From Candidatus Latescibacterota bacterium (GTDB lineage Bacteria; Latescibacterota; UBA2968), in the NCBI GenBank assembly GCA_965205975.1, contig OZ242195.1:1632001-1696000 (forward strand): a stretch of DNA of 64,000 nucleotides. Direction: 5' to 3'. The notes below the pieces were generated by a model. That model did no database searches and was not told where the DNA came from. It saw nothing but the letters and a program-made list of their open reading frames with translations. Both the position numbers and the translations under genes were made by a program. This document shows, piece after piece, positions 14,301 through 46,566 of this stretch (positions are counted from its first letter, which is position 1; each line of letters starts with the position of its first letter).

Positions 14301-14519
14301 TTCTGTTTCTATCAGTTGCGCCGTAGGGGACGCATAAGGGCGTCTTTGAGGAAAATAAGAAGTGGATCCAGGCGTATCGCGCAAAAAGGCTTCAAGCGTT
14401 GACACACCTATTTGCGGGCGCAAACCCGGCGTGGCAAGAGCAATACTCGGGCAGAGAAACGCGAGAAAAAACAAAACACTGAGGTTGCGTGGCCACAGGT
14501 GAATGTGAATAAACTTCAT
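8322..14519 (-). CDS. sprA: Cell surface protein SprA (T9SS outer-membrane translocon family)
   Basis: About 2070 aa; IEAGNTSLAL...GLFGIK, AYIDDFEG, PDTEDLNGNG, IWIDELRV, C-terminal barrel strands ending IGFQ. Start chosen at ATG 14519. Confidence 0.88.
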   Translation of the reverse strand: MKFIHIHLWPRNLSVLFFLAFLCPSIALATPGLRPQIGVSTLEAFLRDTPGSTSYFPQRRPYASPTAQLIETETAEYTLMVFRDLGGAPYGLPVIISLSDFMRYKFHHDTHRLALERLGGRMDDDEEGDGLIDVKIPIRVPQRLSAITGEGAANLTIRGHRRIELSGLSQYTLGQAQAAHLSTSRFPTINFEQEAQLAVEGTIGDRIMVSLEQNSERQGFDLAEGLRLQYTGDEDGIIETIEAGNTSLALPGTRLIGFSGGNRGGLFGIKTRGRVGAINFTVVTSQDKSSSDRQTFTGQGQERSDQIHDYEYVENTYFFLDNTYRENFRNSLFPAPGDRVNEQSVRVFINDYNAQNDLEDSAIPGVAYLAWNNGSPDEEASRGFDKGVEEGMFHELAPSEFTTLPEGYLIHDRGRISRGYTLAVAYQTASGENFGDIQFIPEPGNPDKKIQLKLIKARQQRPTDPTWKLAWRNVYYLGGRNIDQIGLFVGIFRKVPGESEQDNQAGTPFLEIFGLDRRTNGSSESSPPDRLIDIGTGNEIPGLSLPRGHLVFPFLEPFGEEGLGAPDLEVRVPGIYNETNVSNRQDAGRYVIRVRSTSQSTEFNLGGFGGLVKDSEVVRLNSRTLRRDEDYTINYEIGRLKFIGEAENEVADPTAELDISYQTKDLLGLGQSSKSLLGLRLERPFEDQYSLIGMTLLYGSQSTATPRVRVGQEPTRTILWDANARFRMQPKLLSDLVNSIPLVNTQAPSSIDMDFEIAQSLPNPNTKNVAYIDDFEGALNSTAFAIGKIGWNRASVPIRNNRSLTLPQGRLTWYNPIDRDRASLSRIQPTRDDITAEQDIVDVLKLRFDPARSNGFPIRSQNSESGIPQQSWAGIMRYVNGLDLSRSKFLELWIRGDDGHLHIDLGDISERVLLPLDHPLYNDPGDRERFQSGFRTEDKPIGGLPTGDDIVVEEEDIGLDGLTDAEEAEVFRQIFPGVTVPNDPSGDNFEDVDQNTTDILRRYPSGLNGTEGNRAERQSRPDTEDLNGNGFLDQRESFIRYSVDLSSNRGLSSVSGTFTGSSTLVPGTESDLFPELGGVADPPWRLLRIPLKGQDAPRTFEGNPDTTFASALDFVRVWFEHNDTTSVEIYTFSATGSEWQEDPVAFGQSSGDFQVSTIGTNNSFYESPPGLEREIDPTTGIRLSENSLVLEFVDLYPGESISASRNFVDGDDYTEYGIMTLFLHGGNPADPTYNTNFSDAADSVSTGPSPIEFFMRFSPINDDSLNFYEYRSRVYRGWAEETNTVRLDLEIMSQLKGQLLDLQSIEQASDTVSVSLRRGDFLARYDKVGNRIETDVDGRTYIVRGNPALSSIRAFTVGIRNRGDEILLGENEIWIDELRVDEIRKKPALSALADTRITLADLGNLTVNLERRSGDFQDLQGRASGNTTTRFNFDSQLNIDKFFPKEWNTSIPARFSYNRFTSSPRIRPGSDIVLTPEQKINESDVRSQARFTISLRKRPAREDPSLLSRIFFDKASTSLNYSSDASTTGAITQRRRSQNQNLNGNMTYNQAWSQRKTLAIFKWLPFYKPLKEAQFFYLPTSINYNLRFNRGVSDQTSFRAIAGDTSNVIDTVRETFNLTESYAIKLSPFRSLNADYSLTINRDLRNGYALTQLQFGREISRNQSLNFRFTPRFSNWITVNPSYSATYTDRFEIGGERVQYGSIRRGLTVNNQQTANARVNLNLPGLFQRWTRRSGKDGGFSILQWIGKVGGRLQNVTSSVSQNKSNNLFGLTARPSLAYQFGFQDTVQVPIVITGSGTRTNAINVRRQAQVSSGIRLPLGLNFNTSANYSENERTGSTLGKDDQVIFPKFDASWRGLDRVPLIGWLWVSSNATFGYQESRTRRGDGSLSLSPLYLTSDAKEISYNPLFQWSASWKGDVKTTFSRRQTSTDEIRYQRNVTVDTASVQPTLADRLLSTTLTENGTLQADMRYSLRGKFQGTLDLTLSFSRTSNTQTEMPRSAEPDVPADPIIRQNSTSWSVSLGTQYAFSSRFTGGTTFRHERRKDHLRELTNVTWDFRFWGEIGFQ

Positions 14520-14729
14520 AAGGGCTTTGGGTAACAGTCGGAAAGTTGTATTAAGGAGCCGGTGATAGGTCATTGAACAAAGTACATAATAGCACAAGCC
14601 ACATGAAAGTCAAGGTAAAATCCTCAGAAATTGGCGGGGAATAAACATCGGTAAGCGCGTCTTTTTTTTGGAGGAAAAAAGCCGTATATTTCGTTGTCGT
14701 TAAACTCATTTTTTAAAAAAAGGTTCCTC

Positions 14730-26319: not shown

Positions 26320-26721
26320 CTATATGCAGAATGTGTAAGTGCCGTTGAAGTTCATCGTGAAGACGCCCCGACACAGCACATCGCGCCCCAACAACATTTG
26401 ATAGGGAGACTGTATAGCCTGAGCAAATTCCAGCATTTGCAGACTGGGCAACACTATCGGTGGATTAAATGGCAGCAACAAATCCACGATATATTGATTA
26501 ACTGGCTCTGCGCCGGTAGCCGACACCATAGGTTGCTTGCCCACAGGCTGTACACCTATCGCTGTGGCCGCCGAGGCTGCTATACACGTACAGGATGCAC
26601 CGGTATCCATCAAGGCGGCGAACCATCTAACCTGCCCTTGGACAGCCGTACCGGGGAGGGCTATCCCCACATTTGCCATCGGCCCCAACTCGGTTTTATA
26701 TTCCCCGGTGAAACACGGCAT
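26320..26721 (-). CDS. Retropepsin-like (clan AA) aspartic protease
   Basis: ALMDTGASCTCI and LLGRDVL motifs; probable ATG at 26721. Confidence 0.85.
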   Translation of the reverse strand: MPCFTGEYKTELGPMANVGIALPGTAVQGQVRWFAALMDTGASCTCIAASAATAIGVQPVGKQPMVSATGAEPVNQYIVDLLLPFNPPIVLPSLQMLEFAQAIQSPYQMLLGRDVLCRGVFTMNFNGTYTFCI

Positions 26722-26956
26722 GCGAATAAAACCCCAATTCAATTGGTCCCTGTACAACTTCCTGAACAGAGAAGTAAGAATCCTGCTTATACAACGCCTG
26801 TCCAGCTACATAAGCATCGCGGGCAGTGTCGAAGAACGCTACAATTTCACCATCGCGCATCAAGGCAAATTTGCCTCCGTGGCTCTGCATCAACTCGGGC
26901 AACCGCTTCACAAAAGCATTGTAATTGCGATCCACCTGGTCTTGTTGTTTGGACAT
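26696..26956 (-). CDS. Small DUF5678-like protein
   Basis: NYNAF..LPEL...GKFALMRDGEIV.FFDT..DAY..G; AGGAGG RBS; overlaps the protease start. Confidence 0.65.
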   Translation of the reverse strand: MSKQQDQVDRNYNAFVKRLPELMQSHGGKFALMRDGEIVAFFDTARDAYVAGQALYKQDSYFSVQEVVQGPIELGFYSHAVFHRGI

Positions 26957-29012: not shown

Positions 29013-29123
29013 AAATAATAATTATCATAAATTGTATTGATTTTTTAAAAAAATTTGATAACTTACGGCAGTATGGCTTTTGTACCGTAACAGATTGTCT
29101 CCCTTCAATTTCAGACAATCTGA
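29013..29123 (+). promoter_or_regulatory. Candidate operators upstream of the TonB-dependent receptor (Fur-like box plus inverted repeat)
   Basis: AAATAAT-A-ATTATCA at 29013-29027 resembles the 7-1-7 Fur box; CAGATTGTCT-N12-AGACAATCTG at 29091-29122. Confidence 0.4.
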
Positions 29124-29177
29124 TTCAGTTCTAATACGAAACAGCGCAACTGTCCCTTTCACCACAGGAGGAAGTCT

Positions 29178-32100
29178 ATGAGACGGACGAGTCTGTTTTT
29201 ATTTTTATTCATAGCCCTGGCATTCTCAGCCAGTGCTGTTTTTGCCGGATCGACCGGTAAAATTTCGGGCAAGGTCGTGGAGAAATCCACGGGCGAAACC
29301 CTGCCCGGTGCTAATGTCGTCATCGAAGGCACCACATTGGGCGCAGTAACAGATTCCGATGGCAATTATTTCATCATCAATGTGCCGCCAGGTACTTATA
29401 CCGTCAGCGCGAGTATGGTCGGTTATCACAAAACAACACAGATCAATGTGCGGGTCTTTATCGACCTGACCACGACGATGAATTTCTCCGGTGACTTCGG
29501 CCTCGTCGAAGAGACCATTGAACTGGCAGAGATCACAGTGGTTGCCGAACTCCCGGTGGTGCAACCCGATATTTCCGCCAATGTCGCCAATATCTCCGCA
29601 CAAGATGTCGAAACCCTGCCAGTGACCAGCGTGAACGAAGTCGTGCGATTAGAGGCAGGGGTTCTCTCCTCTGCCAATGGCGAACTGTCGATTCGAGGCA
29701 GTGCTTTTAATGAGATCGCCTTTTCGGTCGATGGTATGTCCATGCGCGATGGGCGCAATAACGAACCGTATTCAACGGTGAGTTATACCTCAATCAAAGA
29801 AATGAGCGTGCAGTCGGGTGGGTTTAACGCCGAATATGGCAACGTGCGCTCGGGCCTGGTCAATATCGTGACCAAAGAAGGCGACAGGCGGCGCTACAAC
29901 GGCGATGTGTTGTTGCGACACAGCGGCGCACAGCGCGATTATTTTGGCCCGTTGCCGAACCACTCCAATGGCTTTTTTTGGCGGCCATTTACAGATCCCG
30001 CTGTGAAGAACGTGGGCACCCATTCGCCCGAAAGCCCCTGGGATGTGTACACGCGGCGTCAATATCGCGTCTGGACCGGGTGGAATACCATTGTACAAAG
30101 ATGGGCTGCCACCCCTACTGATCCGTATCACGGCGTGGGTGTGAGAGACACGGGTGCAGATGAATCGACTCTACCAGCCAGTGAACTGCAAGTTGATGAC
30201 GCAGTGATTGCGGAATTGTTCGAGTGGTATCGCCGCAAAGACCTGGAAGTTCGCAATGCGGATTTCGATATCGACCTGGGTTTTGGCGGTCCGTTGATTC
30301 CGGGATTGAGCGAAAAACTGGGCGGTCTGAGGTTTTTTGCTTCGGGCAAGCGGGAGCGCAGGGCCTATATGATGCCTCGCGTGATTGATGAATATGAGAA
30401 CGACTGGGGCCGTGTAAAGCTCACGTCGGATATTCGCAACAGCATGAAATTGAGTGTCGAGGCGATGTCGGGTGAAGAATTTGGTTTGAATCCAAACAAG
30501 AGTGGTTTTCCCAACATGTGGCGCGGCAATCAGGAAATGGGGCTTAATGGACTCGCTGCTATTTGGGGAAATCACAACGATAACACACTTTCGATCAAGC
30601 GCAATAATATTGGTCTGAGTTTTTCACATGTGTTGAGTCCCCAGACATTTTACGAGTTTCGCTTTCAGAGGATGCAATCGGACTTTTTGACCGAAAAGTA
30701 TCCAGACCGAGATTTGACGGCTGTTGAAAAGACTATTCCCCGCAATCCGGACTTCGCGCCTCCCAGTCCGTCTTTACAGGTTTCAGAGGTCACGCAGAAC
30801 CACATCGGGTTGACTGCTGCCCCTGATGAATATTTTATGAAAAATGAAGTCTTTGTTGACGGCCTGTATTTTGGGGGGCACTGGGCCAATGGACGCGATA
30901 ATTCTGAAGTCGTAGCCTATACGACGCGCTTTGACATTACCAGCCAGCGCAATCAGGTCGCGCAGTTTAAGGCGGGTTTTGAATGGATCGCCAGTGATTA
31001 CGATGTCAATCACGAAAATGCACAGCCTTTCTTCAAAAACAATGCGGCACCCAAATACATCTGGCAACGCGATCCGAACCAGTTTGCCGGATACGTGCAG
31101 ACCAAGCTCGAATTCAATGCGATGATCGCAAACCTGGGGGTGCGTTGGGATCGCTGGAATGGGAGTGGCGAATGGTGGGTTTATGAGGATTTCTCCGGTG
31201 CGTTTGGGCCTAAAATTGGCAAAGACAATCTCGAGGAAGCACTCGACCAGGCGCCTGTTAAGACCCTGTCTTATTTAAGCCCGCGCCTGGGTATTTCGTT
31301 CCCGGTAACAGCAGATAGCAAATTGTTTTTTAACTACGGGCACTTCCGCCAGATGCTGAACCCGCACAATCTCTTTCTCGTAGATGAAATAAATACGGGC
31401 GCAGTCTCGCGGATTGGCAACCCCAATCACCCCATGCCGCGCACGATCAATTACGAACTCGGCTTTGAGCAGAATTTGTTCGACCGGTATTTGCTGCGCC
31501 TGACCGGATATTACAAAGCCAACAACGACCAGTCAATTGGTGTGCGCTACACCAATCTGGACCAAACCGTATCTTACAACCTTTTTGAACCCCTCAACTA
31601 CGACGATATCCGGGGCTTTGAAATAACCATTAGAAAGCGCAGGGGCAAGTGGTTTAGCGGATCAGTCAACTATACGTATCTGCAAACTAAGGACGGCAAT
31701 TTTGGTCGGCGCCAGATGTACGAGAACCGCTTAGAGCAAGCCACTTATGACGCGACCTCAACACAGCACTATCAAAGCCGACCCGCCAGCAGACCCTTCG
31801 CCAGATTGTCGCTGGAATTTTACACGCCGCGCGACTTTGGGCCCCAGGTCTCAGGGTTTTATCCCCTGAGTAAATGGGATATGTCTTTCGTGGGCAACTG
31901 GCGAACGGGTCAGTACAGCAACTGGTATGGGCCAGAAGGTGGAGATATCCCCGGTTTGATCAGAAATGTCCAGTACAAGAGTATCAGGAATATGGACCTG
32001 CGCCTGACCAGGCAATTTGCGATGATGGGCGTCAGGGCCATGTTCTTTTTAGACGTGGATAATGTGTTTAATCTCAAGCGACTCAATAGCAGTTCTGCCA

Positions 32101-32534
32101 ACCCGGGGCTCGAAGACTGGGAATTCTATATGGTATCCCTGCATTTGCCAGAAGACACATTTGGCGAGTTCGAACCGCCCTATCAGTTCATTCCCGGCAA
32201 TGACTCACCCGGCAGTTTCAGAGATTACGGCACGCAATTTGTGCCCATTGAAATTGTCAATGCAGCTGGCGATTTGCCCGCCAATGGATTGCCCGGCGAT
32301 GCGGAAATCACGGCTGTACTGCCCACGGGCCTCGAACCCGACCGCCGCGTGTTGTGGTATGTGCAGGAAACCGGGCAATATCACGAATATCAAAACGGAA
32401 ACTGGGCGCAGGCCAATCAGGACTTTGTAGATGAAGTCCTGGACAATAAGCTGTATATCGACATGCCCAACAACGACACTATCTGGTTCTTGAACCCGCG
32501 CCGCGTGAACCTGGGCTTGCGGTTCTCGTTCTAA
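29178..32534 (+). CDS. TonB-dependent receptor with N-terminal carboxypeptidase-regulatory-like domain
   Basis: Signal peptide; GKISGKV..TGETLPGANV..G.YFIINVPPGTY; plug IRGS..VDGM..GGFNAEYG..SGLVNIVTK; SPRLGISFP; ends NPRRVNLGLRFSF. Confidence 0.93.
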   Translation: MRRTSLFLFLFIALAFSASAVFAGSTGKISGKVVEKSTGETLPGANVVIEGTTLGAVTDSDGNYFIINVPPGTYTVSASMVGYHKTTQINVRVFIDLTTTMNFSGDFGLVEETIELAEITVVAELPVVQPDISANVANISAQDVETLPVTSVNEVVRLEAGVLSSANGELSIRGSAFNEIAFSVDGMSMRDGRNNEPYSTVSYTSIKEMSVQSGGFNAEYGNVRSGLVNIVTKEGDRRRYNGDVLLRHSGAQRDYFGPLPNHSNGFFWRPFTDPAVKNVGTHSPESPWDVYTRRQYRVWTGWNTIVQRWAATPTDPYHGVGVRDTGADESTLPASELQVDDAVIAELFEWYRRKDLEVRNADFDIDLGFGGPLIPGLSEKLGGLRFFASGKRERRAYMMPRVIDEYENDWGRVKLTSDIRNSMKLSVEAMSGEEFGLNPNKSGFPNMWRGNQEMGLNGLAAIWGNHNDNTLSIKRNNIGLSFSHVLSPQTFYEFRFQRMQSDFLTEKYPDRDLTAVEKTIPRNPDFAPPSPSLQVSEVTQNHIGLTAAPDEYFMKNEVFVDGLYFGGHWANGRDNSEVVAYTTRFDITSQRNQVAQFKAGFEWIASDYDVNHENAQPFFKNNAAPKYIWQRDPNQFAGYVQTKLEFNAMIANLGVRWDRWNGSGEWWVYEDFSGAFGPKIGKDNLEEALDQAPVKTLSYLSPRLGISFPVTADSKLFFNYGHFRQMLNPHNLFLVDEINTGAVSRIGNPNHPMPRTINYELGFEQNLFDRYLLRLTGYYKANNDQSIGVRYTNLDQTVSYNLFEPLNYDDIRGFEITIRKRRGKWFSGSVNYTYLQTKDGNFGRRQMYENRLEQATYDATSTQHYQSRPASRPFARLSLEFYTPRDFGPQVSGFYPLSKWDMSFVGNWRTGQYSNWYGPEGGDIPGLIRNVQYKSIRNMDLRLTRQFAMMGVRAMFFLDVDNVFNLKRLNSSSANPGLEDWEFYMVSLHLPEDTFGEFEPPYQFIPGNDSPGSFRDYGTQFVPIEIVNAAGDLPANGLPGDAEITAVLPTGLEPDRRVLWYVQETGQYHEYQNGNWAQANQDFVDEVLDNKLYIDMPNNDTIWFLNPRRVNLGLRFSF

Positions 32535-32584
32535 ATTCAAATGCAACCACAGAGTTTATCTCTGGTTTCAACAGGAGAAGTATA

Positions 32585-34759
32585 ATGAACAGATTGTTAA
32601 AACCGCTGGTTGGAGCAGCTTTTGCACTTGTGGCTCTGGTGTTCTGGGGCCAGCCAGCCAAAGTACAGGCGCAGGCTGACCTGGCGTGGTTGGATGTGGG
32701 CGATTATCACTATCGATACGCCTCGACAGGCACAGAGCCTTCAATCACAAGCCCTCCGTTCCGGGCACGTGTGAAATACTGGCCCGGTATTTATTTTCGA
32801 GAGGGTGGAACCCATGTGCGTTCGCGTCACTATATTGGTGTGAGAGATTTTATAGATGAAAATGGCCAACCCTGGCCATTTAAGGTCGCCCGTGCGGGAC
32901 CGCGCGTATTTGACCTGGGCGAACACTTTGCCCTGCAAATGGAACTGATCGGCAAATTTGACAAACCCGACGTGTTTGTCGATGGGTTTCAATCTTTTCC
33001 CAGGCCCACAGTATTGACCCGCGTCGATCCTTCTATTCCATCAGATCGAATGATCATTCGCGGTGCCCATACCAATGTAGGCATTACCTGGGAAGAGAGG
33101 ATCTACGCATTTTCCAATCCCTATCACGATGACTACCACATCCGGGAAATAACCTGGACAAATACGGGCAATGTCGATGCCGATGAAGAGATCGAATTGC
33201 CCGATCAAACCGCGAACGAGGTGATGTTGTCCTTTGCCGCCAAAGAGCACCTATGGGGACCTCGCGGAGTTACGGGTGCGGGTGTCTCCGGCACAATGTG
33301 GGATTATGTGGGCGACGGCAAGGAGCCTCTGGGCAAATGGGAAGGCATACGCGCCACGCTCGGCTGGATGGGCAATGGTACGAATGTGTCCTTCCTGAAC
33401 CGCCTTGGAGGTCCTACCTGGAGAGGTGGGCGCGGAAATGCTAACTATCGGATTACAGAAGGCGATTCCATTGGTCGGCTCGGCGGTGCTTATATGCTGA
33501 CCCGCGCGATCTTGCACGCAGATACAAGCCCAGCAGATCCGACAAATGATCCTGGACAGCCCAGAACTACGGGCTTCACCCGAGGCGGCGAATCGAATAC
33601 CAACCCGTCGTTTGGCGATGCCGAACAGATGGCAGACACCTACCATTTTATGCACCCGGACCTGAGCTATGCCGAATATGGCAACCCGGGTGACGATGGG
33701 CACTTTTTCCCGCACGAAGCCGACCGTTCAGCGCCGACAGAGCCTGCGGGTCCTTTCGATTCGGAATCGTGGTACGAACGCATGGGGGCACAAACTGATG
33801 TCTCTCGCATGAGAAGTGGAGGTATGGTGCCAGTGTTTGCCTTTGGTCCCTACACACTGGCTCCGGGCGAAAGTGTCAGTGCGGTCTGGATTGAAGGTAT
33901 GCACGGACTGAACCGGGATGTGGCTGTTGCAGTGGGCACGGCTTACAAAAATTCGGGTTATGACGATACACTGCCCATTACCTATGAAGGCCAGACCCAC
34001 ACGAAAAATCGCTGGGTACTGGGCTCCCGGGATTCGATCTATCACATGATCCGAAGAGCAACGGCAAACTGGCAATCGGGGTATAATATTCCACATCCCC
34101 CACTACCGCCCAGAGTTTTCAATGTGCAGTCCGGCTCTGATCAAATTGTGCTTTCGTGGGAGACCTTTGCCAATGCCAATCACACGGGTTTTGAGATCTG
34201 GCGCACGCGCAACTTGTTCGAAGGCAATGTGCAAGACCTCTGGGAATACCAGTTGATCGCCACCCTGGGGGCAGGGGACCGCGAATACGTAGATACGGAC
34301 GTGGTGCGCGGCATCAGTTATTTCTACTATATCCAATCCGTAGGACAGGTGAACAGCGATGGAACTGGACTCACGCCCACCGGCATGGTGATGAAAAGCA
34401 GCCGGTATTATACGCAGACCTATGATCCCGCGTTTTTGAAGCGTCCGCCCGGCGGCGTAATGAGTGACGTGCGCGTTGTGCCCAATCCTTATGTACTGGA
34501 AGCCGATCAGAATATTCGATTCCCAGACCAGCAGGACAAGCTGGCATTCTTCGAAATTCCGGGTGAATGTACCATCCAGATTTTCAGCGAACTGGGAGAA
34601 TCGATTTTCACCATCGAGCACACAGATGGCACAGGGGATGAATTTTGGAACCTGACCACAGAATCGAATCAGGTGATTACAAGCGGCATTTATTTTGCGG
34701 TGATCACAGACCTTCAGACCGGCGAAAAGATAATCAAAAAATTCGTCGTTATTCGTTAA
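32585..34759 (+). CDS. Secreted protein with FN3-like domain and T9SS type A-like C-terminal sorting domain
   Basis: Sec signal ending AQA, no lipobox; PPLPP..SGSDQIVLSW..GFEIWR..YVDTDV..YFYYI; VRVVPNPY..IQIFSELGE..WN..SGIYF..KKFVVIR. Confidence 0.8.
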   Translation: MNRLLKPLVGAAFALVALVFWGQPAKVQAQADLAWLDVGDYHYRYASTGTEPSITSPPFRARVKYWPGIYFREGGTHVRSRHYIGVRDFIDENGQPWPFKVARAGPRVFDLGEHFALQMELIGKFDKPDVFVDGFQSFPRPTVLTRVDPSIPSDRMIIRGAHTNVGITWEERIYAFSNPYHDDYHIREITWTNTGNVDADEEIELPDQTANEVMLSFAAKEHLWGPRGVTGAGVSGTMWDYVGDGKEPLGKWEGIRATLGWMGNGTNVSFLNRLGGPTWRGGRGNANYRITEGDSIGRLGGAYMLTRAILHADTSPADPTNDPGQPRTTGFTRGGESNTNPSFGDAEQMADTYHFMHPDLSYAEYGNPGDDGHFFPHEADRSAPTEPAGPFDSESWYERMGAQTDVSRMRSGGMVPVFAFGPYTLAPGESVSAVWIEGMHGLNRDVAVAVGTAYKNSGYDDTLPITYEGQTHTKNRWVLGSRDSIYHMIRRATANWQSGYNIPHPPLPPRVFNVQSGSDQIVLSWETFANANHTGFEIWRTRNLFEGNVQDLWEYQLIATLGAGDREYVDTDVVRGISYFYYIQSVGQVNSDGTGLTPTGMVMKSSRYYTQTYDPAFLKRPPGGVMSDVRVVPNPYVLEADQNIRFPDQQDKLAFFEIPGECTIQIFSELGESIFTIEHTDGTGDEFWNLTTESNQVITSGIYFAVITDLQTGEKIIKKFVVIR

Positions 34760-34774
34760 GAATGGAGTATTTCA

Positions 34775-35830
34775 ATGACCAGAAAATTTCTTACACTTGT
34801 CGCGCTGAGTCTGATGTGTCTGACGCCGCTCTATGCACAGGACCCTGTGGATACGACAGATCCAGACGATCTTCCCGTGCCCGAACCGGGACAGGATCTT
34901 CCGCGCGAACGCCGCGCACAAGCGGGCTTTAAGTTTTTGAGCGTATCGCCCGATGCGCGCGCCGCCGCCATGGGCGATGCGTATTCCGCATTGAGAGTGG
35001 GGGCATCGGCGATGTTTTACAACCCCGCATCAATGGCGTATGCCACTCGCAAATTTCAACTCGCCGCCGGTCAGATCCAGTGGATCGCAGATGTGACCTA
35101 CAACATGGGTAGTGTCGCATTGAATACGGATTGGGGCGTTTTCGGATTGTCAATGATTTCCGTCAATTACGGCGATTTTGAGCGCACCATCCGCGCAGAC
35201 AACGAAAAGGGATTCCTCGACGTGGGTACGTATAGCCCATCTGCCTGGGCAATCGGACTCGGTTATGCCCGCGCAATTACTGACCGATTTTCTGTGGGCG
35301 GCAATATACGCATCGCCAAGCAATCCTTCGGCAATGTTCCCGTGGGGCTTGAAGGCGCATCACCTGTAAACAAAACTTTTGACGAGCGCTCGACCATTGT
35401 CGATTTTGGCGTGCTCTACTGGACGGGATATAAGAGCCTGACATTGGCGCTGAACACGCGAAATTTCTCTCAGGAAAACAAGTATAGCGAAGAGAGTTTT
35501 GAATTGCCGCTGACATTCCGCATGGGGTTGGCGATGGATTTGATCGATTTCACGGATATGGACAAGGATACCCATTCCATCATTCTATCGCTGGACACCG
35601 AGCGCCCGCGCGACTTTTCCGAGCAAGTCAAAATCGGGGTGGATTATACGATTATGAAAACCCTGTCTTTGCGCGCCGGATATATAACGCCAACCGATGA
35701 ACAGGGCATCTCTCTGGGCGTCGGCTTTGGCCGCGACCTGGGCAGCCTCGCTTTGCGCGTGGATTATGCGTACACCGATTTTGGCGTATTTGACGGTGTC
35801 AACCGCTTGACGCTTCAGGCGGGCTTTTAG
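34775..35830 (+). CDS. PorV/PorQ family outer-membrane beta-barrel
   Basis: FLSVSPDARAAAMGDA, FYNPA, ELPLTFRMG, LRAGY, VDYAY. Confidence 0.88.
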   Translation: MTRKFLTLVALSLMCLTPLYAQDPVDTTDPDDLPVPEPGQDLPRERRAQAGFKFLSVSPDARAAAMGDAYSALRVGASAMFYNPASMAYATRKFQLAAGQIQWIADVTYNMGSVALNTDWGVFGLSMISVNYGDFERTIRADNEKGFLDVGTYSPSAWAIGLGYARAITDRFSVGGNIRIAKQSFGNVPVGLEGASPVNKTFDERSTIVDFGVLYWTGYKSLTLALNTRNFSQENKYSEESFELPLTFRMGLAMDLIDFTDMDKDTHSIILSLDTERPRDFSEQVKIGVDYTIMKTLSLRAGYITPTDEQGISLGVGFGRDLGSLALRVDYAYTDFGVFDGVNRLTLQAGF

Positions 35831-35851
35831 ACTCTATTCCCCGCCATTTTG

Positions 35852-35886
35852 AAAAGGGAGCCAGTTTTTGACCGGCTCCCTTTTTT
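35852..35886 (+). terminator. Rho-independent terminator after the PorV-family gene
   Basis: AAAAGGGAGCC...GGCTCCCTTTTTT. Confidence 0.8.
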
Positions 35887-35921
35887 ACGTGAAGTCCACA
35901 GGCTAATCTCTGACTCCTACC

Positions 35922-37892
35922 ATGGCAGAATCCACACAAAATATTCAGACCCAAAAGCTGAGTAGCAGGAGTTTACGCACGTATCGAACCGCCCTTGCAT
36001 CGGTCGCCATGATCCTGGTCAGTGTGCTGTGGAATGAGTGGATGCCGTATTACACATCGGGATCCAATATCAGCCGCAGCCATTTTCCCGTAGCGCTCTA
36101 CTATCCCTTTTTGATTTTGTGTATATGTAACTTGCTGGCAAATCATCGGCAGTTGACCTGGGCATTGACGCGATCGGAATTGCTGGTGGTCCTGGCTTCT
36201 GGACTGGTCGGCATCTCGGTGTCTTACGACGGGGTCAGTGGGCATCTGGTCGGCGTGGTAGCCGCGCCCTATTATTTCGCCTCAACGGAAAACGGCTGGA
36301 CGACGTACTTGCTCGAACATATCCCGCACTGGCAGGTGCCGACCAATGCGGGCGGAGAGATGACGCGGTTTTACGAGGGCGGACAGGGAACATTCCCCTG
36401 GCGCGTATGGGTCGCACCGATATTCTGGTGGATGTGCTTCCTGGGCGCGATGGGATTTGCGGTATTCAGCGTGGTGGTGATTTTGCGAAAGCAATGGGTG
36501 GATTACGAGCGGTTGGCATATCCGCTTGTCGAGGTGGGAAGCCTACTGACCGAGACTGAGCCGGGTGGCACGCTGGAAAAAATGCTTCGATCCCCATTGT
36601 TCTGGATAGCGTTTGGCCTGGTGATGGCGTTAAAGATGTGGAATATTGGATCTTATTTTTCTCCTGCTTTCCCGCATATTTCTATTGAGGGAATGAACTG
36701 GCGGGCTTTTCCCGATTTTCCAGCATTGCCCTTTCGCCTCAGTTTTTACGCCATAGGTTTTGGCTATTTTGCGCGATTAGATGTATTGTTCAGCGTGTGG
36801 TTTTTTATCGTCTTGACGGCATTTCAGATCTATGCCTCGAATATTTTCGGATACCCTCTCGGTTCATCCAGTCTGCACTGGGAAAATGAGCTATTAAACT
36901 GGCAGAGCATGGGCGCACTCATTTTTCTCGCAGTATGGGGTTTGTGGATGGCGCGCGCACACTTGAAGGCCGTGTGGCGCAAAGCGTGGGATCCGAGTTG
37001 TGAAATAGATGACCGCGGAGAGTTATTGTCATATCGCACGGCTGTATTTGGCCTTGTGCTCTCGCTCGTATTTGCAACGTGCTGGCTGGTTGCAACCGGC
37101 ATGGCGTTATGGGTCGCGATAGTATTTCTGATTCTGGCAATGTTGTTATTCTTGGGCCTGGCACGCGCTGTTTCCGAACTGGGTCTGGTCTATGCCTATT
37201 ATCGGTTGGAACCAAATGACGCGGTCGTGCAGGCATTTGGCTCGGCGTCAATCATGGGGGTTTCGAGCATCATCGCGCTGGCATTTATGCGGGTATTCAA
37301 TTTTTTTCCCGACATCGGCAAAGGCTTTTTGATGCCGTCGTTTTCGCAGGCGGTGAAAGCAGTGGATAAGACCGTAACACCCCGGCGGATTACAGGCGTG
37401 ATCTGGGCATCGCTCGCCGTGGGCTTTGTGATTTCGATTGTCAACACGCTCTACTTGAGTTATGAATACGGGGCGTACAATCTGGGAAATATGGGCCTCA
37501 AACACGTTGGCCCGCGGGCATTTGATTTTGCGATGAACGCGATCCGCAATCCCCTGGGGCTCGGAGGTGATGGCCGCGTGATGTGGGCGGGAGTTGGCGC
37601 CAGTGCGATGGCGATTTTGACTGTAGTTCGCTACTGGATCCCTGCCTGGCCGCTGCATCCAATTGGCCTGGCCATGCAAGGGAACTACGGCGTGAGTAAA
37701 ACCGTATTCTCAGTATTTATTGTGTGGTCAATCAAAGTTGTTGTGATGAAGATGGGCGGTGTACAGCTATACGAAAAAGGAAAACCGTTTTTCATCGGCC
37801 TGCTGGCAGCGCAAGCATTCAGCACCGGGCTGGTATTTGTCATAGATTGCATCTGGTTCCCCTTGCAGGGACACAATGTACACAATTTCTAA
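35922..37892 (+). CDS. DUF6785/DUF6784 polytopic membrane protein (putative transporter), copy 1
   Basis: LTRSELLVV, PWRVW..P, ILRKQWVDYERLAYPL, DVLFSVWFF, ELLSYR, WPLHPIG, KPFFIGL. Confidence 0.8.
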   Translation: MAESTQNIQTQKLSSRSLRTYRTALASVAMILVSVLWNEWMPYYTSGSNISRSHFPVALYYPFLILCICNLLANHRQLTWALTRSELLVVLASGLVGISVSYDGVSGHLVGVVAAPYYFASTENGWTTYLLEHIPHWQVPTNAGGEMTRFYEGGQGTFPWRVWVAPIFWWMCFLGAMGFAVFSVVVILRKQWVDYERLAYPLVEVGSLLTETEPGGTLEKMLRSPLFWIAFGLVMALKMWNIGSYFSPAFPHISIEGMNWRAFPDFPALPFRLSFYAIGFGYFARLDVLFSVWFFIVLTAFQIYASNIFGYPLGSSSLHWENELLNWQSMGALIFLAVWGLWMARAHLKAVWRKAWDPSCEIDDRGELLSYRTAVFGLVLSLVFATCWLVATGMALWVAIVFLILAMLLFLGLARAVSELGLVYAYYRLEPNDAVVQAFGSASIMGVSSIIALAFMRVFNFFPDIGKGFLMPSFSQAVKAVDKTVTPRRITGVIWASLAVGFVISIVNTLYLSYEYGAYNLGNMGLKHVGPRAFDFAMNAIRNPLGLGGDGRVMWAGVGASAMAILTVVRYWIPAWPLHPIGLAMQGNYGVSKTVFSVFIVWSIKVVVMKMGGVQLYEKGKPFFIGLLAAQAFSTGLVFVIDCIWFPLQGHNVHNF

Positions 37893-37898
37893 AGCACA

Positions 37899-38945
37899 AT
37901 GATTACGAGAAGAACATTTATACAGCAAAGCCTCGCAACTGCAGGCGCACTGGCAATTGCACCGTCGGCTTTTGCATCAGCGCCACAGGTGATGACTGTA
38001 ACCGGACCGATAGCTCCCGAGCAAATGGGGTTCACCCTCCCCCACGAACACATCATGTCCATTTTTGGTGGGCAACCGGTCAAAGTGGCGCAATACGACG
38101 AAGAAAAATTATTCGCTAAGGTTATCCCCTATCTCAAAATGTTAAAAGTATTTGGCGTGCAAACGCTTTGTGAATGCACGGGGGCTTATTTTGGACGTCG
38201 CGTGGATTTGCTCCGGCGCATCTCACAAGAAACCGGGATGCAAATACTGACCAATACCGGATACTTTGGCGCAGCGCACGATCGCTATGTGCCAGCGCAC
38301 GCCTTTGAAGAAACAGTTGATCAAATTGCCCAACGCTGGATTGATGAATGGGAAAACGGGATTGACGGGACAGATATTCGCCCGGGATTTATCAAAATTG
38401 GCGTTGACCCCGGCATGCCCTCTGACATAGACAAAAAACTCATTTTGGCAGCGGGCAAAACCCATCTCAAAACGGGCCTGACAATTGTCTCGCACACAAG
38501 TGGCAGTACGGATGCGGCTGTCGAGCAGGTTGCGATGCTCGAACAAATGGGCGTCCATCCCGAGGCATGGATCTGGGCACACGCACAACGCGTCAAAGAT
38601 CCCGCCGACTTACCTCCGGTTGCACAGGCAGGTGCGTGGATCGGACTGGATAGCATTCGCGACGAAACCCTCAATCAGCATCTCGATATGCTGCGCCACC
38701 TGAGAAGATTTGGCGTTTTGCACCGGGTTTTGCTTTCTCACGACGGCAATTCATTTGGATATGGCGACCGTCCCTTTAAGCCTTATAACGCCATTTTTGA
38801 TCAATTTATTCCACTGATGCGAAAAGCGAATTTTACCGATGAAGAAATCCACCGGATCACAGTAGAAAATCCGCAAGAAGCTTATGCCATTCGAGTTCGG
38901 AAAAGTCAAGTGCAACCACAGATGAACACAGATGAACACAGATAA
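37899..38945 (+). CDS. Phosphotriesterase-family metallohydrolase, Tat signal
   Basis: TRRTFI; TVTGPI, TLPHEH, GFIKIG, SHT, AH, LLSHD. Confidence 0.9.
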   Translation: MITRRTFIQQSLATAGALAIAPSAFASAPQVMTVTGPIAPEQMGFTLPHEHIMSIFGGQPVKVAQYDEEKLFAKVIPYLKMLKVFGVQTLCECTGAYFGRRVDLLRRISQETGMQILTNTGYFGAAHDRYVPAHAFEETVDQIAQRWIDEWENGIDGTDIRPGFIKIGVDPGMPSDIDKKLILAAGKTHLKTGLTIVSHTSGSTDAAVEQVAMLEQMGVHPEAWIWAHAQRVKDPADLPPVAQAGAWIGLDSIRDETLNQHLDMLRHLRRFGVLHRVLLSHDGNSFGYGDRPFKPYNAIFDQFIPLMRKANFTDEEIHRITVENPQEAYAIRVRKSQVQPQMNTDEHR

Positions 38946-39033
38946 AAAGCAAAAGAGCGGGAGGTTGAGGGGTTGGGTCTAATAGCTGACTGCTGATAGC
39001 CTGGGCTGCTGGGGGTTGGGCGGCCTAACCAAC
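38912..39033. repeat. Short tandem-repeat element: CACAGATGAA decamers followed by GCTGACT/GCTGATA heptamers
   Basis: caaccacagatgaacacagatgaacacagat; agctgactgctgatagc; GGGGTTGG twice. Confidence 0.6.
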
Positions 39034-39044
39034 CGGAGATAATC

Positions 39045-40487
39045 ATGAACAGACGCGAATTTATCAAACAAACTGCCGTCGCGACCGTTGCAATGCCATC
39101 GCTCCTTCGGGCGCAGGCAGATGATCGCCCCAATATTGTATTGTTTTTAGCCGACGATATGACGTGGCGAGACTGCGGCGTATATGGCAATGCAGAAGTG
39201 CAAACGCCAAATCTGGATCGCTTGGCGCGTGAAGGCAGGCGTTTTGATGGCTGTTTTACCTCCACGTCCATTTGCGCGCCCACGCGGCAGCAGTTGTACA
39301 CGGGAATGTTTCCAGTACGCAATGGCGCGTATCCCCAGGGGGGATTTGTGCGTACGGGCGTTAAGAGCATGGCACATCATTTCAAAACACTGGGCTATCG
39401 CATTGGAATCATTGGCAAGCAACACTACGGACCGCCCGAATCGTTTCCATTTGAAGTATTGAAAACAACCAGCACCAATGAATTGCTGGACACCGATGCG
39501 TCAATCCGCGTTATTCAAGAATTCATCAATCGAGAACCGGGACAGCCCTATTGTCTGGTCGTCGCATCGCGCAACCCCCATTTGCCATATACAAAGGGAC
39601 CGCAGGATCTGTACGATCCAGACAAAGTGACCATTCCACCGTATTTAATCGACACCCCGGAAACGCGAAAACGATTGGCGGCGTATTATGCAGAAATTAC
39701 CGCACTGGACGCCGAGTTAGGCCGATGTATGCAAGTCATATCGGATAACACCCTCGTAGTTTTCTCAACAGAACAGGGATCGGCATTCCCCTATGGCGGC
39801 AAGTGGACGTGTTATGAAAACGGATTGCACACCGGATTAATCATGCGATGGCCGGGCAAAATTGAGGCGGGTTCTTCCTGCGATGCCCTCGTGCAATATG
39901 TGGATATATTGCCAACGCTCCTACAAGTTGCAGGTGGCGATCCCACGCAAGTCGATACGGGCAGGGCAGGCGCGCCAGACGGGGGTTCTGGATTTGACGG
40001 GAAAAGTTTTTGGCATCTCGCCATGGGAAATGGCAATCACCACCGGGATTACGTATATGGCACTTATACAAATCGCGGTGTTCGAGACGGAACAGATTAT
40101 CCGATTCGCTCGGTGCGCTCCAACAGATACAAATATATTGCAAATCTCAATCACGAAGGTGTGTTTCAGTGCAATGTGACGCGATTTATGGACGAAATGG
40201 GATGGGCAGAGGCAGCCGAAAAAAATCCAGCCCTCGCCCCCCGGGTACACGCCTTGAGGCATCGCCCGGCAGTGGAATTTTACGACCTAAAAAACGATCC
40301 CTACGAGTTGAAAAACTTATCTGAAGATGCACAATACGCAGATATCATGAAAGAACTGCGAACCGAACTCGATACGTGGATGGCGCAACAAAATGACCGC
40401 GGTATGGAGACAGAATTGGAAGCGTATGCCCACGTAAATCCGGCATCGGCAAAGTACAAGCAATATCGTGAATCCCAAGATCAATAA
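39045..40487 (+). CDS. Sulfatase (sulfamidase-like), Tat signal
   Basis: NRREFI; PNIVLFLADD, CAPTR, GKQH, PH, GGKW. Confidence 0.92.
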   Translation: MNRREFIKQTAVATVAMPSLLRAQADDRPNIVLFLADDMTWRDCGVYGNAEVQTPNLDRLAREGRRFDGCFTSTSICAPTRQQLYTGMFPVRNGAYPQGGFVRTGVKSMAHHFKTLGYRIGIIGKQHYGPPESFPFEVLKTTSTNELLDTDASIRVIQEFINREPGQPYCLVVASRNPHLPYTKGPQDLYDPDKVTIPPYLIDTPETRKRLAAYYAEITALDAELGRCMQVISDNTLVVFSTEQGSAFPYGGKWTCYENGLHTGLIMRWPGKIEAGSSCDALVQYVDILPTLLQVAGGDPTQVDTGRAGAPDGGSGFDGKSFWHLAMGNGNHHRDYVYGTYTNRGVRDGTDYPIRSVRSNRYKYIANLNHEGVFQCNVTRFMDEMGWAEAAEKNPALAPRVHALRHRPAVEFYDLKNDPYELKNLSEDAQYADIMKELRTELDTWMAQQNDRGMETELEAYAHVNPASAKYKQYRESQDQ

Positions 40488-40503
40488 AAAACAGGAGTAT
40501 TTT

Positions 40504-41940
40504 GTGTCCACAGATAGAACAGATCAAAAAGCAGCACCCTGGGGCGAGGGCGAACCCATTGGACGTGAGTATCCGTCGATACCACTGCTCGAAAAAATCG
40601 CTTATGGCGTCGGCGTCTTGCCGATGAATACAAGTGTCAATTCGATCAAAAAGCTCTCAGGCCCCATTTTTAATATTACACTGGGCATGCATCCATCTAA
40701 GGTTGGCACTGTCCTGTTGCTCTCCCGAGGCTGGGATGCGATTACCGATCCCTTTATGGGATGGCTTTCGGACAACACAAAATCTCGCTGGGGCCGGCGC
40801 AGACCCTATCTCTTGTTGGGCGCGATTTTGACAGCCATTGGCTACTCACTCATCTTGAACGTGCCCCAAGGACTGAATCAAGACGCACTGTTTGCGTATT
40901 TTCTAATTGGCAGCCTGGCACTCTATACCTGTGTCACCATTTTACAGGTATCCTACAACAGCCTGGGCTTTGAACTGAGCCACAATTATCACGAGCGGAC
41001 AAATATCTTTGCGTACCGCTCGTTTTTCCAGCAGATCAGCACCATTCTCGTGGGCTATCTCTTTTATTTTTGTACGCTCGATATTTTTGGCGACACCATG
41101 ACAGGAGCCAAATATGTCGGCATTGGCGTTGGACTGGTCATTTTTATATTTCTGTTGCCCACTATTTTCCTCGTGCGCGAAGGCCACTCAGAACAGGCGG
41201 CCAAACAGGAAAAAGTACCCGTCTGGTGGGCTATTAAAACAACCATGAAGACCAAACCATTTCTGGTTCTCAGCGGTTTGACAGTCGTAACCATTTTTGG
41301 TGGTAATTTCACACTGGCATTGGGACCTTATGTCAACATTTATCACGTTGCTCAGGGCGATGTAAAATTTGGAGCCGAGATACAGGGGCACGCAATTCTC
41401 ATCGGAACTATCGTGTCCTTCGCCGCCATTCCCGTATTGGCCTATTTGTCTCCTCGGATCGGAAAGGTCAAAACCCTTGGGATTTCAATCTCCTCCCTTC
41501 TCCTCGGTTCTATCTTAAAGTGGTTTTGCTATACGCCAGCAATGCCCTATTTGCAACTTATCGTACAGCCTTTTATCCGCATCGGCGAGATGGGCTTCTG
41601 GCTTATTATTACGTCGATGAAAGCCGATATCTGCGATTGGGACGAGTGGAAAACCGGCTTTCGGCGAGAAGGCATGTACGGCGCGGCAACGGGCTGGTTT
41701 CAAAAAGTAACACAGGCGACGACATTCGCGCTCGGGCAGGGATATATTCTGGCAATCATCGGATTTGACGCTACAAAAGGCGTGGCGCAGGATCCGGGCG
41801 TAATGTTCTGGATGCGCTTTCTCTTTGCCGTATTGCCCGCGGTCCTGGCCGTGGCGGGATTGATCTTATTGAAATTTTATGAAATCGACGACGAAAAAGC
41901 CAAAGAGATTAAGGCAGATTTGGATAAACGAAATAACTAA
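40504..41940 (+). CDS. MFS transporter, glycoside-pentoside-hexuronide (MelB-like) family
   Basis: EKIAYGVG, WDAITDPFMGWLSDNTKSRWGRRRPY, ERT, ADICDWDE...RREG; GTG 40504 with AGGAG RBS. Confidence 0.92.
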   Translation: MSTDRTDQKAAPWGEGEPIGREYPSIPLLEKIAYGVGVLPMNTSVNSIKKLSGPIFNITLGMHPSKVGTVLLLSRGWDAITDPFMGWLSDNTKSRWGRRRPYLLLGAILTAIGYSLILNVPQGLNQDALFAYFLIGSLALYTCVTILQVSYNSLGFELSHNYHERTNIFAYRSFFQQISTILVGYLFYFCTLDIFGDTMTGAKYVGIGVGLVIFIFLLPTIFLVREGHSEQAAKQEKVPVWWAIKTTMKTKPFLVLSGLTVVTIFGGNFTLALGPYVNIYHVAQGDVKFGAEIQGHAILIGTIVSFAAIPVLAYLSPRIGKVKTLGISISSLLLGSILKWFCYTPAMPYLQLIVQPFIRIGEMGFWLIITSMKADICDWDEWKTGFRREGMYGAATGWFQKVTQATTFALGQGYILAIIGFDATKGVAQDPGVMFWMRFLFAVLPAVLAVAGLILLKFYEIDDEKAKEIKADLDKRNN

Positions 41941-41949
41941 GTGAAAATC

Positions 41950-43908
41950 ATGGCAGAACAATTCAAACAACTCTCAGAAACAACGCCCGTGCGAGCGGTG
42001 ACAACGCGGTCGGTAATTGCATCGGTAGTGGTGATTACTGCAAGCGTGTTGTGGAACGAGTGGATGCCGTACTATACGTCGGGATCGAATATCAGCCGCA
42101 GCCATTTCCCCATGGCGTTTTTCTTCCCATTTTTGATCGCGTGTACTCTCAACCTGACATTGAATCACTTGCGAGCGGGATGGGGGCTTTCGCGTTCGGA
42201 ATTGCTGGTGGTTCTGGGATCGGGTTTTGTGGGAATCGCGCTGGCTTACGACGGGTTGACCGGCCACTTCTTCGGCGTTCTGGCAGCCCCTTATTATTTC
42301 GCATCTGTGGAAAATGGATGGGGTTTTATACACAACACCATCCCCACATGGCTCGCGCCGTCGAATGCCACTGGCGAAATGACGCGGTTTTTTGAAGGCG
42401 GAGGCGGATCTCCCCCGTGGCGCGTATGGGCAGTACCCGTTTTCTGGTGGATGTGCTTTTTCGGCGCAATGGGCTTTGGGGTATTTTGCCTGGTCGTAAT
42501 TTTGCGAAAGCAATGGGTGGATTACGAGCGCTTGGCTTATCCACTTGTCGAAGTCGCACAATCTCTGGCAGAAACAGAGAAAGGCGGCGGACTGGAGAAA
42601 ACATTTCGCTCTCCCCTATTCTGGATCGCATTCTCCCTCGTCATGCTCTTGAAATTGTGGAATATCGCGTCTTATTTCACCCCGGCATTTCCACATATAG
42701 ACATTGAACAAACACAGTGGCAACCGATTCCCGATTTTCCCTGGATGGTAAATCGCCTGAGTTTTTACGCCATTGGATTCGGGTATTTTGCGCGCCTGGA
42801 CGTTCTGTTCAGCGTGTGGTTCTTCATTATTTTGACCGCGTTTCAGGTATATGTATTCAATATCTTTGGGTACCAAATCGGCGCAGCAACCCACCACTGG
42901 ACAAGCGATGCCCTGGGCTGGCAGAGCATGGGCGCATTGATCTTTTTGTCTGCCTGGGGATTGTGGATGGCGCGAGCGCACTTGAAAGCCGTGGTGCGAA
43001 AAGCCCTATATCCCAACTGCGAGGTGGATGATAGCGGCGAGTTATTGTCCTATCGCATGGCAGTATTCGGCTTATTGGGCGCATTTGCATTTGTCTCGGC
43101 CTGGCTATATACGGCGGGCATGCCCTTGTGGGTGGTATTCTGCTTTCTCATTTTGGCGATGTTGTTATTTTTGGGCCTTGCCCGCGCCATTGCGGAATTG
43201 GGATTGGTCTATGTGTATTATCGCATTCAGCCCCACGATGCCGTGGTGCAGGCATTTGGCTCGAATATGGTAGGGCTTTCCGGTGTGGTGGTGCTCGGAT
43301 TTATGCATGTATTTAATCAGTGGCCCGATATTGGCAAAGGATTTTTAATGCCGCCGTTTACGCAGGCGGTAAAAGCGGTGGATAAGGTCGTCAGTCCGCG
43401 GCGAATTACACCCGTGCTGTGGCTGGCACTCGCACTGGGTTTCACCATTTCAATAGTGGATACCCTGTATTTGAGTTATGAATACGGAGCCTATAATCTG
43501 GGCAACATGGGGATGAAGAAGACGGGACCCGTGGCGTTTGATTTCGTAATTACAGAAATACGAAATCCCCTGGCGCCCGGCGGCAATGGCAGGGTCATGT
43601 GGGCATTTATCGGGATGGGACTGATGGCGGTTTTGACGACCGTTCGCTACTGGGTGCCGTGGTGGCCCCTGCACCCGATTGGCCTGGCCATGCAGGGGAA
43701 TTACGGCGTGAGTAAGACGGTCTTTTCGATTTTTATTGTCTGGTCAATCAAAGCGGTCGTCATGAAAATGGGCGGCGTACAATTATACGAAAAGGGAAAA
43801 CCATTTTTCATCGGCTTGCTCGCAGCACAGGCGGTCAGCACGGGCCTGGTATTTATCATAGATTGGTTCTGGTTCCCTCTGCAAGGGCATAATGTGCACA
43901 ATTTTTAG
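41950..43908 (+). CDS. DUF6785/DUF6784 polytopic membrane protein, copy 2
   Basis: Colinear paralog of 35922..37892; shares WNEWMPYYTSGSNISRSHFP and the C-terminal WFPLQGHNVHNF. Confidence 0.8.
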   Translation: MAEQFKQLSETTPVRAVTTRSVIASVVVITASVLWNEWMPYYTSGSNISRSHFPMAFFFPFLIACTLNLTLNHLRAGWGLSRSELLVVLGSGFVGIALAYDGLTGHFFGVLAAPYYFASVENGWGFIHNTIPTWLAPSNATGEMTRFFEGGGGSPPWRVWAVPVFWWMCFFGAMGFGVFCLVVILRKQWVDYERLAYPLVEVAQSLAETEKGGGLEKTFRSPLFWIAFSLVMLLKLWNIASYFTPAFPHIDIEQTQWQPIPDFPWMVNRLSFYAIGFGYFARLDVLFSVWFFIILTAFQVYVFNIFGYQIGAATHHWTSDALGWQSMGALIFLSAWGLWMARAHLKAVVRKALYPNCEVDDSGELLSYRMAVFGLLGAFAFVSAWLYTAGMPLWVVFCFLILAMLLFLGLARAIAELGLVYVYYRIQPHDAVVQAFGSNMVGLSGVVVLGFMHVFNQWPDIGKGFLMPPFTQAVKAVDKVVSPRRITPVLWLALALGFTISIVDTLYLSYEYGAYNLGNMGMKKTGPVAFDFVITEIRNPLAPGGNGRVMWAFIGMGLMAVLTTVRYWVPWWPLHPIGLAMQGNYGVSKTVFSIFIVWSIKAVVMKMGGVQLYEKGKPFFIGLLAAQAVSTGLVFIIDWFWFPLQGHNVHNF

Positions 43909-43925
43909 AAAATGCCCGCACCGCC

Positions 43926-46448: not shown

Positions 46449-46566
46449 ATCTTCCTCCGCTTGTGAACACACTGGATATTTTAAAACAGCTACTCAAAAA
46501 ATGCCAACATTTTACGCACTGCATTTGGACAAATTGACAATGCACAAACGCAAACCTTTCTTGTAC

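Follow-up and report, generated by a model that had tools for sequence, protein, structure and literature searches.

A conserved operon of a TonB-dependent transporter, a secreted partner and a PorV-like barrel as a candidate outer-membrane uptake unit in a Candidatus Latescibacterota bacterium

Architecture of the locus

The DNA analysed here, called the window, comprises 64,000 nucleotides of a Candidatus Latescibacterota bacterium (GTDB lineage Bacteria; Latescibacterota; UBA2968; GenBank assembly GCA_965205975.1, contig OZ242195.1, positions 1,632,001 to 1,696,000 of the forward strand), and positions are counted from its first letter. At 29178-35830, three co-oriented open reading frames (ORFs) on the + strand, separated by intergenic gaps of 50 and 15 nt, encode a TonB-dependent transporter (TBDT; 29178-32534, 1118 aa), a secreted partner protein, hereafter the cargo (32585-34759, 724 aa), and a PorV/PorQ-family barrel (34775-35830, 351 aa). 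These three genes, hereafter the triad, are a conserved operon. An earlier note, made from the sequence alone, had read the locus as a SusD-free uptake module of three co-oriented genes with short gaps and a single terminator, in which a protein with a Sec signal and no lipobox, about 480 aa of unrecognised sequence, an FN3-like domain and a type IX secretion system (T9SS) C-terminal domain (CTD) resembling type A is followed by a PorV-family barrel. The analysis below bears out this anatomy; the tail is no more than type A-like, and the genome, with one SusC/SusD pair, is not SusD-free.

The operon is closed by a probable intrinsic terminator (35852-35886, + strand), a hairpin with an 11-bp stem and an 11-nt loop, flanked by an A-run on the 5' side and a T-run on the 3' side. 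Its stability has a z of -2.61, with 3 of 200 shuffles equally stable, and it is kept in five of the seven closest loci folded (L001, L002, L009, L012 and L018, not L003 or L005). The hairpin is absent from the list of the terminator scanner because its loop exceeds the scanner's limit of 8 nt. Promoter-like sites occur at chance level (12 found, 12.0 expected). Contigs of RNA runs were compared with the locus for seven runs from seven studies and one further run of unrecorded kind (8 of the 23 runs listed), all picked for containing the stretch and representing strains about 90-95% alike; on these grounds RNA depth was left out of any ranking of genes. Contigs in four of the RNA studies cover the triad as one block, starting at 29081-29135 and ending at 35837-35897, and two further runs give the same block in pieces; run X23 is flat, and in runs X1 and X8 the edges of the block end loosely. 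Because the contigs come from related strains, this one-transcript signal is a weak hint.

Conservation of the gene order was assessed in 96 loci with cargo homologues, 22 from genomes and 74 from metagenomes (the latter set drawn from the best 80 of 361). A TBDT gene lies upstream of the cargo in 78 of the 79 judgeable loci (76 directly and 2 one gene away, with 1 absent; 17 not judgeable), and a PorV-like gene lies downstream in 87 of 88 (83 directly, including L006, and 4 one gene away, with 1 absent; 8 not judgeable). The closest relatives of the cargo, with 85-94% identity, are found in Candidatus Latescibacterota genomes, and the taxa of named relatives include Latescibacterota, Rhodothermales and Calditrichia. 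Some cargo match is present in 125 of 125 genomes, a figure unused as a triad count, since the weak matches are confined to the tail or to FN3 and scoring was limited to a few candidates in each genome.

The transporter and its secreted partner

The transporter consists of a CarboxypepD-like N-terminal extension, a plug and a barrel, and exceeds the Pfam cut-offs for CarbopepD_reg_2 and Plug (38.4 bits for Plug, cut-off 23.9). Its AlphaFold2 (AF2) model (predicted local distance difference test score, pLDDT, 86.6) has an intact plug and barrel, and its listed Foldseek matches, the best with E 3e-23, consist of TBDTs, alone or in complexes. It falls outside the SusC/RagA family, scoring 55 bits on the SusC model TIGR04056 against a cut-off of 368, compared with 544 bits for the genome's true SusC. 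TonB is encoded in the genome, with 10 TonB_C matches over the cut-off.

The signal peptide of the cargo, read by eye, is of Sec type and ends VQA|Q with no cysteine, and no SusD-family match was found in the cargo by a Pfam scan. A survey of 118 full-length homologues, 2 of 120 having been dropped as short, gave six with a lipobox-like cysteine; in all six, by eye, this residue falls within the hydrophobic segment and an AxA site follows it. In the AF2 model of the cargo (pLDDT 90.1, predicted template-modelling score 0.88), an N-terminal domain (N-domain; aa 30-497, 32672-34075) forms a predicted beta-supersandwich with closing helices, followed by an FN3 domain (about aa 509-604, 34109-34396) and by a terminal beta-sandwich (aa 630-724, 34472-34756) ending KFVVIR, all on the + strand. 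The N-domain of the window cargo has no Pfam or NCBIfam match, and no Pfam family covers this domain in any of 10 paralogous cargos. Only the FN3 part was matched in a PDB sequence search with the cargo (Fn3, E 6e-6), and the ESM Atlas returned unnamed clusters only, at 0.93-0.94, with no named match; the few taxon records of these clusters are from Fidelibacterota, Zixiibacteriota and Gemmatimonadota. The family is large, with 1,674 cluster representatives at E 1e-30, a count that includes some FN3-repeat proteins.

The best structural match of the N-domain is residues 22-410 of 2cqs (Z 18.1, root-mean-square deviation (rmsd) 4.0, 269 aligned residues, 9% identity). More broadly, the domain resembles the N-terminal part of enzymes of glycoside hydrolase (GH) families GH94, GH15, GH65 and GH116 (Z 13-18 over about 230-285 residues, 6-12% identity), with which Foldseek, the comparison suggested in the earlier note, concurs. 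The matched N-terminal domains are the non-catalytic parts of these enzymes. The matches are limited to this part of the targets, and the cargo, unlike the enzymes, continues after the supersandwich with FN3 and the tail instead of the (alpha/alpha)6 catalytic barrel. As modelled, the N-domain is without a recognisable catalytic domain, and its fold and gene context suggest a function that is probably binding rather than catalysis.

A variant tail and a private barrel

The cargo tail falls below the cut-offs of both the type A model TIGR04183 (16.5 bits, cut-off 23), which 12 other matches in the genome pass, and the type B model CHU_C (21.8 bits, cut-off 27). In the model it forms an Ig-like beta-sandwich, placed at the very end of the protein, which can be superposed on the CTD of PorZ (Z 11.9, rmsd 2.4, 88 residues), in keeping with the type A-like CTD of the earlier note. 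The PorZ model NF052228 gives 15.9 bits on the cargo, in the tail only, and the cargo is not PorZ. When classes were assigned with profiles built from the tails of other genomes, the 26 tail-like matches in this genome separated into a variant class with 12 of 12 triad-type cargos and a canonical class with the 14 others, and in this genome the variant class is restricted to proteins encoded beside PorV-like barrels.

The third gene belongs to the PorV/PorQ family (NF033709, 190 bits, cut-off 90), and lies under the orthologue cut-offs of PorV and PorQ (NF033710 and NF033711, 70.6 bits vs 250 and 76.2 vs 220). The profile of its family matched only PorV in the PDB (6h3i_F, E 8.5e-17), and the PorP/SprF model TIGR03519 gave no match on the window barrel. 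The genome has 15 PorV-like genes, of which 11 lie in triads, 1 accompanies a 95% identical cargo-barrel copy and 3 stand alone. Of the stand-alone barrels, one reaches 161 bits with the model of PorV orthologues (below its cut-off), vs 37-74 bits for the 11 triad barrels, and is therefore the likely housekeeping copy. The presence of 11 triad barrels and of this separate, more canonical PorV led to rejection of a single housekeeping porV, supporting the triad barrel as private to its operon. At the locus of the most canonical PorV (L108:2741-11275, G000:2747741-2756278), a T9SS-tailed protein resembling an inactivated M6 peptidase (367 bits, under the cut-off) is encoded one gene later, together with a 1013-aa propeller-containing protein, and this is a possible core T9SS locus of the lineage.

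The T9SS outer-membrane translocon SprA is encoded at 8322-14597 of the window on the - strand, outside the operon (TIGR04189, 637 bits), as the sole full-length match in the genome, and each of the 56 genomes tested in the class encodes SprA. The earlier note had pointed to sprA in the same window, and this stands, but the genus varies in this respect: sprA lies about 20 kb away in several genomes and far off in others, and a linkage of sprA to the operon was rejected. As for porU and porZ, which the earlier note had named for checking, the genome encodes a PorU-like C25 peptidase of 1903 aa that stays under the cut-off of the PorU model (338 bits vs 420), and no PorZ over the cut-off. The C25 peptidase gene is located inside an apparent surface-polysaccharide gene cluster (L110:2336-8047, G000:2040336-2046047), a setting that may hint that canonical cargos are anchored through a glycan.

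Duplication of the triad

The count of triads and the comparison of paralogue phylogenies, both proposed in the earlier note, gave 11 TBDT-cargo-barrel triads in the genome, with 16-68% pairwise identity by region, and congruent distances among them. By contrast with the triads, the genome has a single SusC/SusD pair, and SusD occurs in 20 of 56 genomes of the class and never in more than one copy. When distance matrices were compared across the 10 triads that are intact, agreement was best for TBDT vs N-domain (rho 0.71, p 0.0003) and tail vs barrel (0.65, p 0.0004), and lower for TBDT vs tail (0.44) and N-domain vs tail (0.32), supporting a joint duplication of the three genes. Close relatives were also compared, 14 of 17 being used and 3 left out for incomplete ORF calls: in four of the 14, the tail is 99-100% and the barrel 95-97% identical to the window, vs 84-85% for the TBDT barrel and 88-90% for the N-domain. 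The TBDT/N-domain and tail/barrel pairs thus appear to assort separately, which would fit two interacting pairs.

In six of the 11 triads (TBDTs at genome (G000) positions 1963826, 1995424, 3030849, 3251077, 3541111 and 4530975), a gene for a 232-272 aa outer-membrane barrel lies directly upstream of the TBDT; all five that were scanned match OMP_b-brl, three of them over the cut-off. The five intact triads with this gene group together in the trees of both TBDT and barrel, so the unit comprises four genes in this clade. Elsewhere in the genome (G000:1247791-1256179), two large TBDT-like genes, with neither SusD nor cargo, flank an apparent BCCT-type transporter (by eye).

Proposed mechanism and alternatives

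In the mechanism proposed here, the cargo would exit via Sec and then SprA, and its private PorV-like barrel would grip the variant tail and so keep the protein at the cell surface. The supersandwich domain would be presented, over or beside its own TBDT, as a likely non-catalytic sugar-binding partner, and the three products would form one outer-membrane capture-and-import unit, in place of the SusD lid. Export through SprA with retention of the uncleaved tail, for which PorZ-PorQ and type B/PorP/SprF offer the precedent, is likely; stable docking of the cargo on the transporter, by analogy with SusD and other lids, is given even to somewhat better than even chances. For the whole chain, from Sec/SprA export through retention of the tail on the private barrel to substrate binding by the N-domain at the transporter, the chances appear evenly balanced. 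The earlier note had likewise proposed that a cognate PorV displays an SprA-secreted binding protein that replaces SusD. That reading gains from the private barrel, the distinct tail class, the co-duplication, the lack of a known catalytic domain, the scarcity of SusD and the ubiquity of SprA in the class, but strict replacement of SusD is called into question by a canonical-tail locus that has the same module without TBDT or barrel, and by lipoproteins of relatives that are possible lids.

Several observations weigh against the proposed capture-and-import unit, some of them irrespective of any particular alternative. RNA run X16 is flat, and one of its contigs crosses the hairpin. The congruent trees and the mosaic of the close relatives also follow from linkage, because the TBDT adjoins the N-domain and the tail adjoins the barrel. 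No GldK, GldL, GldM or GldN was found over the cut-off in the genome (best GldK score 103 bits vs 350), in a comparison where no control genome matched the GldL, GldM or GldN models; with SprA, PorV and tail proteins present, the T9SS is possibly motor-less or divergent, judging by sequence profiles. The remaining observations bear on specific alternatives, four of which are considered in turn.

The best placed of these, although unlikely, is that the cargo is held at the surface by the barrel and binds substrate in the manner of SusE/SusF-type proteins, with no docking as a lid, the pore being closed by inserts of the TBDT or by a lipoprotein. In the transporter model, two of the long loops, the first and the last, contain large helical inserts (about aa 250-360 and about aa 962-1108, respectively), which TBDT topology presumably places side by side on the outside, and which, as modelled, could serve as a built-in lid. 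Many relatives add lipoprotein genes in or after the triad, and these could be the real lids there; accessory lipoprotein-like genes (e.g. L062:9007-12217 and L021:10103-11329) encode two kinds of product, one with a TIG domain and a length of about 410 aa, the other about 305 aa long and weakly matching RskA_C. A copy of cargo and barrel with 95% DNA identity is found elsewhere in the genome without a TBDT, and may be a recent duplication or an assembly artefact (L103 and L104, G000:3026897-3034123 and 5091821-5095534, the TBDT of the source triad being split by a frameshift). The N-domain and FN3 also form a portable module, to judge from 29 long homologues chosen by length from the best 150 matches: 24 carry the canonical tail, with N-domain and FN3 fused to LRR, BNR, beta-helix, FG-GAP, dockerin or an unnamed part, and five keep the variant tail. 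At one locus of such canonical-tail fusions, with no TBDT or barrel beside them (L095:2586-12478), three tandem secreted proteins each combine LRR, cargo N-domain, FN3 and canonical tail. Docking on a TBDT is therefore not obligatory for the N-domain fold; the same fusions and the lack of a barrel at this locus also support a role in binding and the view that variant tails go with private barrels. Against loose binding stand the distance of the N-domain, which best tracks the TBDT, the window operon, which lacks a lipoprotein, and the fixed one-to-one order of the genes, seen in 78 of the 79 loci that could be judged, although the synteny counts are not independent, because cargo similarity was the basis for selecting the loci and about 19 of them are closely related.

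A second alternative, in which the N-domain acts enzymatically on the substrate at the transporter mouth, as a surface lyase, hydrolase or anomer epimerase, is rather improbable. The supersandwich is a fold common to potentially catalytic proteins, matching mutarotase-like proteins (Z 11-13) and a GH174 fucanase (Z 12.9), and in the cargo subfamily the H-D-x-Y motif is invariant and numerous acidic residues are conserved. However, the best matches are to non-catalytic domains (Z 15-18 vs 11-13), the histidines conserved in the subfamily are not kept across paralogues, with that of H-D-x-Y lost in most, and the window cargo lacks the nearly invariant histidine of VHxGPR. The loci moreover carry separate enzymes, and these have canonical tails.

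A third, that the unit is structural or adhesive (a surface coat, host attachment or an envelope scaffold) with import secondary, is very unlikely. The adhesin-type repeats among the fusion partners, the sponge and coral samples recorded for the runs containing the stretch, and the more complete coverage of the triad than of the catabolic neighbours by RNA contigs, which cannot rank expression, would agree with it, but the transporter retains an intact plug and barrel, eleven divergent copies lie beside transporters and catabolic genes, and the same annotations occur in an alginate locus of Rhodothermus marinus. The last, in which the barrel is only a shuttle, as PorV is described in passages of PMC10202324, and the exported cargo is clipped by the PorU-like C25 peptidase, whose presence makes cleavage of the tail possible, and then released or attached to a surface glycolipid, is the least probable, since a shuttle that recycles would hardly repay the cost of one barrel per cargo, the genome has a more canonical PorV, PorZ over the cut-off is lacking and the same review proposes, in those passages, that cognate barrels shield tails from cleavage.

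Relation to known systems

The triad is real, conserved and, as far as searched, functionally undescribed, with precedents for all its parts. A literature search, with most subscription papers and supplements outside its scope, gave no functional description of the triad, and passages of PMC4454575, PMC3534657 and 10.1101/2025.02.17.638638 do not mention it. The nearest analogues are the SusC/SusD (RagA/RagB) pairs and alternative lids such as BtuG and XusB, in which, as proposed for the triad, a TBDT and a dedicated extracellular partner are encoded by adjoining genes at a nutrient locus. Like SusC/SusD loci, the triad locus contains catabolic enzymes and an inner-membrane transporter (sulfatase, major facilitator superfamily (MFS) transporter, PcRGLX-like lyase), which are however not conserved beyond the genus. 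The triad differs from both SusC/SusD and the alternative lids in its TBDT, which scores below the SusC cut-off, and in its partner, which is no lipoprotein, is unrelated to SusD, carries a T9SS-type tail and has its own barrel. By comparison, all the lids in passages of Price et al. (10.1101/2023.03.17.533168) are lipoproteins of Bacteroides TBDTs.

On the secretion side, passages of PMC10202324 describe that PorZ keeps its tail on PorQ, and that type B cargo genes cluster with their cognate barrels. In the PorZ-PorQ and PorU-PorV pairs (passages of PMC10202324 and PMC11285876), a PorV-family barrel is combined with one tail-bearing protein whose tail is kept, and the triad shares the barrel family and a PorZ-like tail; by contrast, its cargo is neither PorZ nor PorU, and the pair is multiplied 11-fold and linked to a TBDT, in a genome where no GldKLMN scores over the cut-off. 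Type B cargos with PorP/SprF barrels (e.g. SprB-SprF, passages of PMC10202324) resemble the triad in the clustering of cargo and barrel genes and in a tail class tied to a barrel class, whereas the triad has a barrel of the PorV/PorQ family, a tail under the type B cut-off, no motility adhesin and a TBDT in the unit. As for a T9SS beyond the Bacteroidota, passages of PMC11285876 raise it as a possibility and no more.

In print, the triad appears as annotation at the head of the characterised alginate locus of R. marinus, where the legend to Fig. 2 of PMC9530828 gives a TonB receptor, then hypA, of 2,181 nt and annotated as a T9SS type A sorting protein, and hypB, of 1,056 nt and annotated as PorV/PorQ. 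Order and annotation are the same as here, where the corresponding genes measure 2,175 and 1,056 nt; HypA is likened to the cargo by annotation, not by sequence. In that part of the paper hypA and hypB are listed as hypothetical genes, with no role given.

Neighbouring genes

Downstream of the triad (35922-46472, Pfam), the + strand encodes a DUF6785/DUF6784 membrane protein, a phosphotriesterase-family protein, a sulfatase, an MFS sugar transporter and a second DUF6785/DUF6784 protein, and the - strand a PcRGLX-like lyase. The first of these catabolic neighbours are conserved within the genus only. Judging from these genes, which give a weak indication, the substrate at the locus is probably a sulfated or uronic-acid glycan. 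The two DUF6785/DUF6784 genes lie at 35922-37892 and 41941-43908, and genes resembling them in length and in the C-terminal motif are found after five other triads; these proteins are a candidate inner-membrane transporter for the same substrates. Elsewhere in the window, the - strand carries a short ORF with an LMDTGAS motif (26320-26757), which is taken to resemble retropepsin-type aspartic proteases, and a family B DNA polymerase-like gene (50203-52368, 721 aa).

Significance

Feeding on polymers in Bacteroidota is defined by SusC/SusD. Related phyla degrade polymers although SusD genes are few or lacking in them, and for the capture machinery that is missing there the triad offers a concrete candidate; its cargo defines a large unnamed protein family. 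The occurrence of the same annotations in the cultured R. marinus makes the idea testable now. Tentatively, and at somewhat less than even chances, much of the FCB (Fibrobacteres-Chlorobi-Bacteroidetes) superphylum outside Bacteroidia may use a second, undescribed uptake design, in which a transporter is capped by a protein lid that is exported by a motor-less SprA T9SS and anchored by a tail and barrel, not by a lipid, the tail-barrel address of each operon sorting a dozen lids to a dozen transporters. If true, the T9SS would gain a direct role in building importers, and the dozen PorV paralogues per genome would be explained.

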